In this document: positions 1 through 5,329 of the stretch, piece by piece
Layout: each line of letters opens with the position of its first letter
Numbering within the stretch: the first letter of the stretch is position 1
Source of the DNA: a virus
Lineage: Duplodnaviria; Caudoviricetes
Reading direction: 5' to 3' (one strand)
DNA: 64,000 nucleotides
IMG/VR virus record: IMGVR_UViG_3300030106_005551
Coordinates: 6,887 to 70,886 of that record
Position numbers and translations under genes: made by a program
The notes under the pieces: model-generated
What the model was told of the DNA's origin: nothing
The model's database searches: none
Seen by the model: only the letters and a program-made list of their open reading frames with translations

Positions 1-2327
1 GCGCTACAATTAGCAGCATATAAACATCCTAAAGAGTCGTGGCCAAAATTCATATTTGCTAATGGGTCGTAGTTCCACGCGTTAACATCCATACATCCTT
101 GAATAATAGCAATACACGAACCATTGTCAGTATTAGCCAATGAATCATAGTTAAGAGCAGTACTATCCATACAACCATAAATATAAGGTATGCAACTAAA
201 ATTTTCTGTATTAGCTTGTGGGTTGTAGTTAAGCATAGAAGGGTCGGTACAACCATAAATATAAGGAATACAAGAATTATTGTCTGCATTTGCTAATGGA
301 TTAAAATTAAACATTGTTGAGTCTGTACATCCAAAAACATAAGGCTCGCAGCTTCCATCGTCAGTATTACAACTGTCACAATAATTGTACATTGTTGGGT
401 CTATGCATCCATATATAAGCGGTACACACGTATCTGCTGTATTTGCTAAAGGATCGTAATTAAATGCTAGTGGATTCATACATCCTAGTATTACAGGTAT
501 ACAACCACCATTATCTACATTTGCATTATTATCATAGTTAAATGCTGTTGAGTCCATACAGCCAAAAATAGCTAAAGTAAGACAACTTCCGTCATCTACT
601 CCTGCTACAAAACCTTGAGTATAATACTCTAAATAACCTGGATTTGTACATCCTGGATTGTAATAACAATCATCGGCAGTATTAGCGGCAGCATTATAAT
701 TGTATGCTAAAGTATCCATACATCCATATACTACATCTATACACTCATTTCCACAATAAGGCTCTGCTATGTATAAATCCCTAGGACTTCTATAATTTTT
801 TAATTTGTTTTCGTTAGGACCAGGCCAAGGATTATTTCCTTCATATATTATAGTTCCGTATGCATTTTCTATTTTGAAAGAATTTTGTATTGTTTGTATA
901 TCTAACTGTTGTGCATTTTGTTGTGGTGTTGGTATTTCAAAATAATATAAAAATATTTCGTCATACGCATTAAAATTTATTAAAAATGTGTCAGAGTATA
1001 TACCGTTTTGGTCTATTCTAAATTGCCATAAAGAATCTTCTTGTTGTACCCCTAGCCAGCAACTTCCCCAAGAATCGCCACCAGCGTCAAATAATATTAA
1101 TTTATATTCACAAGGAGATGACAATTTCATTCTATGAGCATTAGGATCATAATTAAATGCTGTTGAATCTATACATCCATATATAGCTATTGTTGAACAA
1201 CTTCCATTATCAATAGTAGCCTCTATATTGTATTCTACATAATCATCATCTGTACAACCATATATTATTGTGTCATTATTACAAGTATCAGACACGTAAG
1301 GATTAGAAGATGCCGTTGTTCCAAAATTAGGTGGATTCAAAATAAATACCGTATCTTCACAATCTAAATTTGTTACAATACAACTACCAACAACTGAACC
1401 GCCACCTATACCATCTCCATATGTATCATTAATAGTAAAAACTATTGTATCTCCTATTGGAACACAAACATCTGTTCTTACTGTTTGTCCTGTCTGTGTA
1501 TAATCATATGTTCCAGGAGTAACAGAATATGTAACAGTTCCATTAACAGATATTTCCCAAGAGGTTTCTCCTGGCCAATTATCTAATAATATTGCCACTT
1601 CTAATAATGATTGTCCACTATTACATTCTACGTCATATACACAAGTGCCATCGTCTACATTAGCCCATGGGTTATAATTAGCGGCACTATCATTTGTACA
1701 GCCATAAACGTATATGCACGTACCGTTATTTATTGTTGCAGTAGAATCATAATTAGGAGAAACAGGGTCATTACAACCATAAACAAAACTAAAAGGATCA
1801 CTAACCATTATATCATCTATACATATATCACTAGTATAACTACTACCTGTAGTCGCTTTAAAAACAAATTTAAAAGAGTCTACTGGTGGTATTGGATAAT
1901 ATGCAAATTTCCAATTATTTCCTTGATCCCCCGATATAGTATCTATTGCTGTATATATATTGTTAGACAATATACCGAGCTCTAAATCACCCATAGTCGC
2001 TCCATACATATGATACCAAAAAGAAATCACCTTTCCAGGTGTTTGCGATATATCAAAAGTAGGAGTATATACTATAAAATTTTTATTTGGATGAGCAAGA
2101 CCAGATGATTCTACATAATAATAAACACCATTACCATTGGTATGATCTCCACTAGGACCTGTATTAACCGAGCTTGTAGGGCCTTGCTTTAATAACCAAT
2201 CGCCAAAATCATTTTGATCTTGCTGTAAGCCAACAGAATTTTCAAAATTATGTATCCAGGGATACGTATTAATTGTTTGGCTAAAACCTATAAAAGGCAA
2301 CAGTAATAGTATTAATATTTTTTTCAT
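1..2327 (-). CDS. Secreted MAM-domain protein with Cys-rich GCxD-NY-DDGSC repeats (partial; runs off window start)
   Basis: Not in the ORF track. ATG at 2327 overlaps the TGA of the upstream ORF (ATGA); 775 codons, in frame at both ends and no stop in the stretches translated. MKKILILLLLPFIGFS/Q signal peptide; MAM motifs TGPSGDHT..YYYVESS, ISFWYHMYGATMGDL, SDICIDDI; at least 13 Cys repeats. Confidence 0.85.
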   Translation of the reverse strand, partial: MKKILILLLLPFIGFSQTINTYPWIHNFENSVGLQQDQNDFGDWLLKQGPTSSVNTGPSGDHTNGNGVYYYVESSGLAHPNKNFIVYTPTFDISQTPGKVISFWYHMYGATMGDLELGILSNNIYTAIDTISGDQGNNWKFAYYPIPPVDSFKFVFKATTGSSYTSDICIDDIMVSDPFSFVYGCNDPVSPNYDSTATINNGTCIYVYGCTNDSAANYNPWANVDDGTCVYDVECNSGQSLLEVAILLDNWPGETSWEISVNGTVTYSVTPGTYDYTQTGQTVRTDVCVPIGDTIVFTINDTYGDGIGGGSVVGSCIVTNLDCEDTVFILNPPNFGTTASSNPYVSDTCNNDTIIYGCTDDDYVEYNIEATIDNGSCSTIAIYGCIDSTAFNYDPNAHRMKLSSPCEYKLILFDAGGDSWGSCWLGVQQEDSLWQFRIDQNGIYSDTFLINFNAYDEIFLYYFEIPTPQQNAQQLDIQTIQNSFKIENAYGTIIYEGNNPWPGPNENKLKNYRSPRDLYIAEPYCGNECIDVVYGCMDTLAYNYNAAANTADDCYYNPGCTNPGYLEYYTQGFVAGVDDGSCLTLAIFGCMDSTAFNYDNNANVDNGGCIPVILGCMNPLAFNYDPLANTADTCVPLIYGCIDPTMYNYCDSCNTDDGSCEPYVFGCTDSTMFNFNPLANADNNSCIPYIYGCTDPSMLNYNPQANTENFSCIPYIYGCMDSTALNYDSLANTDNGSCIAIIQGCMDVNAWNYDPLANMNFGHDSLGCLYAANCS
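60..740 (-). repeat. Nine tandem ~26-aa Cys-rich coding repeats
   Basis: Cys codons of the GC(T/M/I)(D/N) motif at 93, 171, 249, 327, 405, 480, 558, 648, 720 (spacing 78,78,78,78,75,78,90,72 nt). Confidence 0.9.
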
Positions 2328-2515
2328 AATTCAAAACCAAAATTTAAAAGTATAACTCTATACCTTTTCTTAGAACAACCTTCTTCGCAAAATAAACATG
2401 CTTTTATTTCTAATAAAGTTAATGTTCCTAATCTAAAAGTAATTTCGTATTTTTCTTTTTTATTTCCTTTTTTCCAACTGTTTATAAAATTCATAGTATT
2501 ATCTTTTTCCGCCAT
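2324..2515 (-). CDS. Hypothetical protein, 63 aa
   Basis: ORF track; overlaps both neighbours in operon fashion. Confidence 0.65.
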   Translation of the reverse strand: MAEKDNTMNFINSWKKGNKKEKYEITFRLGTLTLLEIKACLFCEEGCSKKRYRVILLNFGFEL

Positions 2516-2861
2516 AGTACTCTACAGCATGTCCGTCTTTAATTAATTGTTCATTTATACAACACTCTCCATTTTTTGTTTTTATATGTAATCTTCCTAA
2601 AACTCTTCCAAATTTTCCTAATCCTTCGCTTTCTAAAACAAAATAATCTTTTTCGTTTGTAGATTCTATCATTTCTAATAAAGCTTCTTTAGCGGCTAAA
2701 CCTCTTTTCTTTTCTTCTTTATCTCTAGTTCTAGATTCTGGAGTATTTATACCAACAAGTCTTATTCTTTTTTTTATTGTTACATCAAATCCTAAATCTA
2801 TATTAGCATCTAAAGTATCTCCATCTACTACTCTGTCTAGTTTAGCTTTATAAGTATACAT
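2499..2861 (-). CDS. Thermonuclease (SNase-like) family protein
   Basis: RVVDGDT, RIRLVGINTPE, GKFGRVLG and INEQLIKDGHA match SNase motifs. Confidence 0.9.
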   Translation of the reverse strand: MYTYKAKLDRVVDGDTLDANIDLGFDVTIKKRIRLVGINTPESRTRDKEEKKRGLAAKEALLEMIESTNEKDYFVLESEGLGKFGRVLGRLHIKTKNGECCINEQLIKDGHAVEYYGGKR

Positions 2862-2862
2862 T

Positions 2863-4164: not shown

Positions 4165-4174
4165 TATTAAATTA

Positions 4175-4182
4175 CAAATTTA
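4175..4182 (-). promoter_or_regulatory. Bacteroidota -7 promoter box TAAATTTG
   Basis: TAnnTTTG match, intergenic, 10 nt before the ATG at 4164. Confidence 0.5.
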
Positions 4183-4201
4183 CAAATAATTTTTTTCATA
4201 A

Positions 4202-5329
4202 TTAAAATATAACATAATTTACTCCAACTTTAAAATCGTACCACTCTCTATTCCAATACTTATTATATTTTCCCTCTACAAAATATCCTAGACTTTTATC
4301 TACTTTTATTCCATATATTAAACCAGCAGAATAGTCATACCATTGTTTACCGTCATTAAAATTATGATATGAAAACTCACTACCATCATCATAATGCCAA
4401 GGAAGTAAATTACCCCAAGCATGAATCCACTTATTTTTTTTGTACTTATAGTAGTCAAAACCTATAATTATAGAATGTTGTATTTGTTTTGATAATTCAT
4501 TTCTTTTTTTAATAGTATAGTCAGATATTACTTGTGGTATAACAACTTCTTTCCAAACTTCAGAATTAGTTGCAACTATAACCCCACTAGGATCTTTATA
4601 CTCACTATTTTCTACATCAATATTATAACCTTCTTGTATTGCTAAGTAAGTGTAATGCAAATTTCCATTATCCAAGATCCATTTTTCTAGTGGGTTATAG
4701 CCGTATGGTTCTGCTAATCTATGTGCAAGACCTATACTAAATGCTAGGTCAGCATCTTTTTTCCATCTATATCTTTCTGATAATTCAAAATACTCTACAT
4801 CTGCAAAGCCGTCTTTTAAATACTCTACTTTTGCTGCAAAGTGATCTACACAAAGCGGACCATCACAGTCGTCATCAGAACTATATCTTATAAAATGATG
4901 TTGGTCTATATAATCTACGCCTTGTTGTCTTGCATAATCTATTTCAAATAAATACTCAAAACCCTGCACTTTGCCTACAGTAGCAGCATCTGTATAATTA
5001 GATTCTGTGCCATCATAAAATGTATTAGCTCTATTTTCATATCCAAATCTAGCTATCTTTCTTATACCTATAGTTACAGAATAATCATAAGGTGTTGATA
5101 TTATACTTTCTTCTAATTGACCAGAAGTAACAGAAAAGATTTTTGCATCAGAAACAGAAGTTCCTCCATTTACAGCCCCGTATACAGTAGAAAATTTTAA
5201 ATGCTTTTTTAAAGTTTTTTGTAAATCATAATTTTTAATATAATCTATATAGTCAATTTGCGCACAACATTTTTTTTGCACACTACAAGATGCTAAAATT
5301 AAAAATATTATATATAAAGCTTTTTTCAT
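4202..5329 (-). CDS. Large outer-membrane beta-barrel protein
   Basis: N-terminal signal (LASC lipobox or CCA/Q site); many alternating aromatic strands; C-terminal YDFKVGVNYVIF beta-signal. Confidence 0.7.
   Translation of the reverse strand: MKKALYIIFLILASCSVQKKCCAQIDYIDYIKNYDLQKTLKKHLKFSTVYGAVNGGTSVSDAKIFSVTSGQLEESIISTPYDYSVTIGIRKIARFGYENRANTFYDGTESNYTDAATVGKVQGFEYLFEIDYARQQGVDYIDQHHFIRYSSDDDCDGPLCVDHFAAKVEYLKDGFADVEYFELSERYRWKKDADLAFSIGLAHRLAEPYGYNPLEKWILDNGNLHYTYLAIQEGYNIDVENSEYKDPSGVIVATNSEVWKEVVIPQVISDYTIKKRNELSKQIQHSIIIGFDYYKYKKNKWIHAWGNLLPWHYDDGSEFSYHNFNDGKQWYDYSAGLIYGIKVDKSLGYFVEGKYNKYWNREWYDFKVGVNYVIF

Follow-up and report, generated by a model that had tools for sequence, protein, structure and literature searches.

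A conserved trio of predicted envelope proteins linked to lysis genes in a distant marine crAss-like phage

We analyzed a 64,000-nucleotide stretch of viral DNA (hereafter the window), which corresponds to bases 6887–70886 of the 70,886-bp virus record IMGVR_UViG_3300030106_005551, rated complete by CheckV, and focused on a block of genes at its left end. The minus strand codes everything from window position 1 to ~51,250, and the genes of the block are tightly packed or overlapping on this strand. Three of them, hereafter the trio, are the main subject of this study: a predicted 375-aa exported outer-membrane β-barrel (4202–5329, minus strand), a 93-aa putative inner-membrane protein (3677–3958, minus strand) and a 120-aa exported thioredoxin fold without catalytic Cys (3313–3675, minus strand). 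An initial annotation made from the letters alone had listed barrels, transmembrane (TM) proteins, a Cys-free thioredoxin fold, an SNase-type nuclease and a MAM/Cys-repeat protein in this block, and all of them were present and correctly placed on the minus strand. It had also put the block at the distal end of the virion operon, which did not hold. We also read the adjoining 6.9 kb on the left (L002), which contained 13 further minus-strand genes, including a holin and a DUF5675 gene. Downstream of the MAM gene and on the same strand, the order was a 70-aa two-TM protein, an 85-aa protein, the 138-aa holin, three small proteins, the 159-aa DUF5675 protein, a 392-aa fibre-like protein and more. 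The 138-aa protein matched the phrog_3427 holin family (6.4e-30) and Pfam GTA_holin_3TM (22.6 bits, slightly below cut-off). The 159-aa protein is a lysin candidate that matched DUF5675 (1.5e-28) and, weakly, Tlde1; DUF5675 has been placed structurally among C82-like peptidase lysins (2026 preprint, 10.64898/2026.04.11.717860).

The genome has a G+C content of ~0.33, and no integrase was seen in it. The terminase large subunit (TerL), portal and major capsid protein matched crAss-like PHROG families (phrog_6681, 1.6e-93; phrog_6547, 1.7e-113; and phrog_11589, 3.8e-30, respectively), and by this sequence evidence the source is therefore a distant marine crAss-like phage. The best tblastn matches of TerL were crAss-like phages of Bacteroides, Flavobacterium and Cellulophaga at ~29% identity, and near-identical DNA was present in marine metagenomes from several studies. 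This marine DNA and the crAss-like backbone, together with the signal peptides in four protein families and the secretion domains in homologues described below, suggest a marine Bacteroidota host.

We first describe the largest member of the trio. The 375-aa protein had no match in Pfam, NCBIfam or PHROG, and both a profile search against PDB sequences and a Pfam scan of 31 family members came back empty. An AlphaFold2 (AF2) model built with 31 homologues (pLDDT 76, pTM 0.71) contained ~14 strands and a ~75-residue insert, and the C-terminus reads ...NYVIF. Foldseek returned only outer-membrane barrels for this model, with NanC/KdgM at E 1.7e-5; VIA gave Z ~10 to the TamA barrel, CymA and OmpG; and an Atlas search led to outer-membrane protein (OMP) families only (DUF6850, Phage_OMP and Chlam_OMP). 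The barrel fold proposed at the outset was thus borne out by modelling, for this protein and also for the 145-aa protein of the block. The family comprised 3557 proteins at E < 0.001 (clusters at 90% identity) and, in an exhaustive profile-free search, 304 representatives at 50% identity. A single-protein search of genome contigs yielded three contigs from metagenome-assembled genomes (MAGs), all of binned-phage-like appearance. Since no member of the family turned up in the other 400 Bacteroidota genomes sampled, the family appears to be essentially phage-borne among the genomes searched. The phage-like contigs L083, L084 and L085 carry the full trio and lie in MAGs assigned to Parvibaculum, Sphingobacteriales and Rickettsiales; in at least two cases the assignment is probably an artefact of binning and does not indicate the host.

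The 120-aa protein matched Pfam Thioredoxin PF00085 (27.4 bits against a cut-off of 23.5) and TIGR01068 (E 3.4e-7, below its cut-off). It carries FNAxWNxxN instead of WCGPC, and the W-N-x-x-N at the CxxC position was invariant across 29 aligned homologues. The 93-aa protein has a single N-terminal hydrophobic span (residues 17–35, Kyte–Doolittle 2.05), followed by a Pro-rich linker and a conserved polar, helical C-terminal part (R.EFD.KDQMIR...), a predicted topology that resembles an i-spanin. It gave weak matches to phrog_1009/20984, families of unknown function, and its gene always immediately precedes the thioredoxin gene. Comparison of the 93-aa family with a 'coil containing protein' of Vibrio phage 1.238.A, a cultured phage whose holin belongs to the same family, was uninformative, with only a 15-residue motif in common and an hhalign probability of 16%. 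Predicting a complex between the mature thioredoxin and the periplasmic portion of the 93-aa protein yielded neither support nor a verdict.

Export of these proteins was assessed with a crude signal-peptide detector that looks for a hydrophobic core and a small residue followed by Gln. Exactly four of the 33 minus-strand open reading frames (ORFs) of at least 100 aa were detected, and these were the same four for which cleavable signal peptides with Gln at +1 (the Q-rule) had been proposed. The feature recurred in nearly all homologues of the four families (116/120, 69/70, 57/57 and 16/16). The 375-aa protein contains a lipobox-like LASC as well as a CCA/Q further along. The lipobox-like motif is missing in 78 of 120 barrel homologues, and where a homologue has no LASC..KCC insert its signal peptide runs directly to A-x-A/Q. 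Because the signal peptides of these insert-free homologues end at A-x-A/Q, the sequences favour the CCA/Q cleavage site as the conserved feature of the barrel. Taken together, the signal peptides and the models make export to the envelope of a Bacteroidota host a well-supported prediction.

We then compared all local proteins by tblastn with 80 related viral contigs. The 375-aa barrel was matched in 80 contigs, the 93-aa TM protein in 75, the thioredoxin in 71 and the MAM-type protein in 66, and the trio was co-conserved in 71 of the 80. The other genes were found far less often: the 63-aa ORF in 29, the SNase in 24, the 68-aa protein in 19, the small barrel in 18 (sometimes on the opposite strand) and upstream fibre-like genes in 1–6. 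Two gene orders occurred among the relatives, namely barrel, TM protein, thioredoxin, cargo and TM protein, thioredoxin, cargo, barrel, where cargo denotes the MAM-type protein. The block therefore reads as a mosaic with the 93-aa TM protein, the dead thioredoxin and the 375-aa barrel as its conserved core, and with the 8-stranded barrel, the nuclease and the small ORFs as sporadic accessory genes. Conservation of the neighbourhood, one of the tests proposed in the initial annotation, was accordingly seen for the three core genes and, within the lineage, for the MAM-type gene; it was not seen for the small barrel, the SNase or the small ORFs.

The trio recurred in at least three unrelated phage lineages. 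A 33%-identical barrel was found in a 31-kb phage belonging to a 31–36-kb group, where a Laminin_G fibre and small ORFs come first, followed by TM protein, a thioredoxin with signal peptide, barrel, Peptidase_M15_3, holin and metallophosphatase; the TM protein of this phage has the shared motif R/K.EF..KD..IR. A 32%-identical barrel was found in a 45-kb podovirus whose portal is P22-type and whose capsid is SU10-type; there the TM protein, thioredoxin and barrel are followed in order by two small basic ORFs, the holin and tail genes. Neither block contains a MAM-type gene. In the 45-kb lineage, hidden Markov models from our own alignments detected TM protein–thioredoxin–barrel–holin in 49 of 80 loci, the remainder being mostly truncated versions. 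Among loci with 4 kb or more of sequence past the block, the three lineages had a holin no more than 4 kb downstream in 24/37, 41/51 and 2/2 cases, with a median gap of ~0.5 kb; by our estimate, one randomly placed holin in a 45–70-kb genome would fall within 4 kb well under one-tenth of the time. An M15 endolysin or DUF5675 gene directly adjoined in L086, L175, L176 and L084, and in L084 the barrel abuts DUF5675. The analysis thus documents export signals, folds, co-conservation and linkage to lysis genes.

Two further observations concern these lineages. Very basic small proteins flank the holin in other trio lineages, of 41 and 99 aa (the latter DUF6321) in L092:7092–7519 and of 45 aa in L086:10026–10163. 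The cultured flavobacterial Nonlabens phage P12024S (L180, record 8218–10139) is syntenic with the 31-kb lineage (fibre, endolysin, same-family holin and metallophosphatase) and lacks the trio; it may serve as a natural comparison or an engineering chassis. Two unrelated ORFs occupy the trio slot in P12024S, and no obvious spanin was seen; comparison of the slot was uninformative.

That the trio is inherited together with holin and endolysin by lineages that otherwise have little in common favours the view that it is the part of a lysis cassette that deals with the third envelope layer. We tentatively propose, as a reading that falls just short of probable, that it is a lysis-linked trans-envelope device acting in the role of a spanin. 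The 93-aa protein with its periplasmic helix, the Cys-free thioredoxin and the outer-membrane barrel would together cover all three envelope layers, and the set would move between phage lineages along with holin and endolysin. Once the endolysin has removed the peptidoglycan, the trio would breach or destabilize the outer membrane. In the crAss-like lineage, a lineage-specific MAM/Cys-repeat protein may have been inserted beside the trio and would reach the surface or the medium by host type IX secretion or a shortened version of its signal. Physical contact among the three proteins, like any role in lysis, is what we infer from these arrangements. An all-frame scan of the whole 70.9-kb genome found no lipobox-bearing ORF other than the barrel, and a canonical o-spanin or u-spanin is therefore missing. 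No spanin was found in 91 of 677 phages of Gram-negative hosts in an earlier survey, which deduced another route in such cases (Kongari et al. 2018, PMC6139136).

Several points weigh against this proposal. In the phage genome itself, six genes, including the MAM gene, lie between the trio and the holin. Known o-spanins are small lipoproteins and not barrels that depend on the β-barrel assembly machinery (BAM), and the envelope morons bor and lom of lambda also sit beside lysis and tail genes, so that neighbourhood is not function. The trio is 60–87% identical across phages, whereas spanins are usually very divergent. The only match to known spanin families in PHROG was to the Rz-like phrog_1026, at E 0.043 and for one distant homologue. 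A tblastn search of cultured and deposited phages with the barrel and two distant homologues was empty, so that no cultured carrier was found. The proposal also does not account for a Cys-free thioredoxin in such a device.

The most serious competitor involves the MAM/Cys-repeat protein, the first 775 of whose 867 aa are encoded in the window (1–2327, minus strand); the full gene is L002:6610–9213 and ends 276 bases to the left of the window. Behind a signal peptide that ends ...PFIGFS/Q, the protein has a MAM domain (Pfam, 4.6e-22), 43 Cys and ~13 repeats of the form GC[TM]D..NY..AN.D.GSC. The MAM-type proteins of the lineage share the signal peptide, which was followed by Gln in 57 of 57 family members, a series of Cys repeats and a Cys-knot of invariant sequence (ND.CYAWV..VD.YCC.N.WD..C..TY..C), and the N-terminal domain is swapped among phages. 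By sequence comparison this protein is confined to the crAss-like lineage. Syntenic homologues in L013, L015, L055 and L059 match the type A sorting domain of the type IX (T9SS) secretion system, TIGR04183, at 31–46 bits against a cut-off of 23, and PF18962 was present in ~20 among the 120 closest homologues. The 867-aa protein of this phage itself matched neither TIGR04183 nor PF18962. Like most others, it ends in a 38-residue tail (..ITDLLGR......N.LLFYIY.DGT.EKK.K), which hhalign aligned, with two deletions, to the first, middle and last strands of the T9SS C-terminal domain (CTD) at a probability of 97% that comes partly from a common upstream motif.

One contig bears on both the tail and the barrel. 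L094 carries housekeeping genes (GAPDH, flavodoxin and PHB esterase) and a barrel homologue (L094:5992–7200, plus strand; 363 bits to the A1 profile). A 182-aa signal-peptide protein (L094:378–923, minus strand), 5 kb from this homologue, ends in the short CTD-like tail seen in the phage MAM protein; the tail is therefore not only a phage feature. This contig may represent the cellular source of both the barrel and the short tail, and the family of the 182-aa protein has no named members. The Cys repeat (residues 663–736 of the 867-aa protein) also occurs in a 'virion structural protein' of Synechococcus phage S-CAM3 and in a marine single-cell virus record.

The block could be read as a machine for remodelling the host surface, in which the barrel anchors or shuttles the T9SS-tagged MAM protein and the dead thioredoxin acts as a periplasmic chaperone of this Cys-rich cargo, for adhesion, aggregation, exclusion or protection of progeny. 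A cargo-like protein is present in 66 of 80 contigs of the lineage and often abuts the barrel, its close homologues bear the canonical type A domain, and a variable N-terminal domain ahead of a conserved Cys-knot and tail is the pattern expected of anchored surface proteins. There is a precedent in type B CTD cargo, which binds adjacent PorP-like barrels (Gorasia et al. 2022, PMC9143113), and in the cellular-looking L094 a barrel homologue lies 5 kb from a short-tail protein. The trio, however, occurs without such cargo in two other phage lineages, and the window's MAM protein fails the T9SS CTD models. The PorP/SprF model TIGR03519 found nothing in the genome even at E 10, and the barrel had no NCBIfam match by hmmscan. 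We regard surface remodelling as unlikely to be the main function, and a PorP/SprF-like anchoring of cargo by the barrel as possible only as an add-on.

These results also bear on the central claim of the initial annotation, which was that the phage installs its own outer-membrane and surface apparatus in the host, with an adhesin as one of its parts and receptor masking among the suggested roles. Envelope export stood up, with the Q-rule peptides, two modelled barrels and T9SS domains in MAM homologues in its favour; the idea of one co-conserved apparatus did not. Receptor masking and adhesion fared poorly. In two lineages the trio lacks any adhesin-like cargo and is always beside holin and/or endolysin, which points to lysis. 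Its conservation also does not track the highly variable tail fibres, as it is 60–87% identical across phages whose tail-fibre genes are wholly unconserved, and this counts against masking. The SNase had been counted as a member of the envelope module, and its lack of a signal peptide marks it as cytoplasmic.

The same linkage to the holin would fit a sensor or timer of lysis, in which a periplasmic and outer-membrane relay acts on the holin by a logic like that of lysis inhibition by T4 RI/RIII. A periplasmic domain tethered near a single-pass inner-membrane protein resembles antiholin arrangements such as T4 RI. The trio has no homology to any antiholin, and a 14-stranded barrel would be a costly component for timing; we consider this explanation quite improbable.

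We give an equally slim chance to the view that the genes are fitness or moron genes that merely lie close to lysis genes, in the manner of lambda lom and bor, and alter the host envelope during infection. The 145-aa protein of the block (2863–3300, minus strand) fits this view, since it is sporadic (18/80 contigs, either strand) and Ail/OmpX-like. Its AF2 model (pLDDT 76) has 8 main strands, and the top Foldseek matches were OmpA-TM (9.1e-5), Ail (3e-4), NspA and OmpX. The only profile match was to PF13505 OMP_b-brl at 19.2 bits, below the cut-off of 28.7, and there was no match to Ail_Lom in Pfam. OMP-like barrels are likewise annotated in uncultured phages, and Q-rule proteins of unknown role occur in Porphyromonas gingivalis prophages (Matrishin et al. 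2023, PMC10367356). For the trio, a moron origin is opposed by a gene order that is fixed and tightly coupled, by its presence in nearly all members of three lineages and by thousands of marine viral copies; in the other 400 Bacteroidota genomes sampled, nothing pointed to a prophage or cellular pool. Finally, it is highly improbable that the genes encode plain parts of the virion, for example tail accessory proteins placed after the fibres: the block does lie between fibre-like genes, with the 392-aa fibre-like protein further downstream, and the Cys repeat does occur in the S-CAM3 protein annotated as virion structural, but cleavable Sec signal peptides that leave Gln at +1, like outer-membrane barrel folds, are ill-suited to virion assembly in the cytoplasm.

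The remaining genes of the block and its surroundings are as follows. The 68-aa accessory protein (3958–4164, minus strand) has a polar, helix-like N-terminal part and a predicted C-terminal TM segment at residues 49–67. The 120-aa SNase-type endonuclease (2499–2861, minus strand) scored 39.5 bits in Pfam against a cut-off of 21 and matched phrog_452 endonuclease (1.9e-38). When the first 8 kb were searched as DNA against phages, the SNase gene was the sole match: positions 2706–2858 showed 72–76% nucleotide identity over ~130 bases to endonuclease genes of T4-like cyanophages and large Staphylococcus phages, a DNA-level similarity that is unusual across very different phage groups. The 63-aa ORF lies at 2324–2515 (minus strand). 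The upstream border of the block is formed by a 298-aa Laminin_G_3 protein (5341–6237, minus strand), which was found in 5 of 80 relatives, is not conserved and is probably a tail fibre or virion protein. In L002, the 85-aa protein (6137–6394, minus strand), with the two-TM protein on one side and the holin on the other, has a Ser/Thr-rich stretch and ends in eight Gly followed by Tyr; it is kept in 17 of 80 relatives and has no family match. The virion module contains giant ORFs of 3756 aa (window 11725–22995) and 2245 aa (window 28204–34941), as expected for the cargo or virion RNA polymerase proteins of crAss-like phages.

How phages without recognizable spanins pass the outer membrane is an open question, and lysis by Bacteroidota phages is largely uncharacterized. 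If it acts at lysis, the trio would be the first device of the spanin type to be based on a barrel inserted by BAM. With thousands of copies in marine viral DNA, it would also offer a handle on the virus-driven bursting of marine flavobacteria-like hosts, and its T9SS-tagged partner would add a second case, open to testing, in which a lytic phage uses a host secretion system. A bolder proposal, which we put forward as somewhat doubtful, is that the trio represents a new class of outer-membrane-breaching lysis machinery that replaces lipoprotein spanins in abundant marine Bacteroidota phages, and that the shortened tail of its neighbour is a minimal sorting or anchoring signal borrowed from the host.

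The individual parts of the block can be compared with known systems. Phage-borne genes for putative T9SS type A cargo have been noted before in 'Cryophage' (Bellas et al. 2020, PMC7468147), and gut crAss-like BACON lineages with putative T9SS cargo have also been noted (de Jonge et al. 2019, PMC6949934). These share with the MAM-type proteins a Sec signal peptide, a canonical C-terminal sorting domain (here in close homologues) and a variable N-terminal part, whereas the window's copy has the 38-residue tail that fails the CTD models, placed after an invariant Cys-knot and beside the trio. The Q-rule proteins of P. gingivalis prophages (PMC10367356) similarly expose an N-terminal Gln through their signal peptides, an adaptation to export in Bacteroidota; those proteins are unrelated and come from temperate phages, and no barrel/thioredoxin/TM trio was described there. 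With lambda Lom/Bor and Ail/OmpX, the 145-aa protein shares an 8-stranded fold and a sporadic, moron-like place among late genes; it differs in having no Ail_Lom match and in belonging to a crAss-like phage in which no integrase was seen, and not to a lambdoid prophage. PorP/SprF barrels (PMC9143113) resemble the 375-aa barrel in that an outer-membrane barrel gene adjoins a gene for a secreted surface protein in Bacteroidota. In contrast to them, the 375-aa barrel has no PorP model match and also occurs free of cargo, and its cargo relatives are of type A, not type B.

The closest comparison is with two-component spanins such as lambda Rz/Rz1 (Kongari et al. 2018, PMC6139136). The trio, known here from sequence and models, has no sequence relation to them and is far more conserved than spanins usually are. 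Its outer-membrane part would be a ~14-stranded barrel instead of a small Pro-rich lipoprotein, and it includes an extra soluble thioredoxin-fold part. In both systems, a single-pass inner-membrane protein with a periplasmic helical part is paired with an outer-membrane partner beside holin and endolysin, an arrangement that could span the periplasm.

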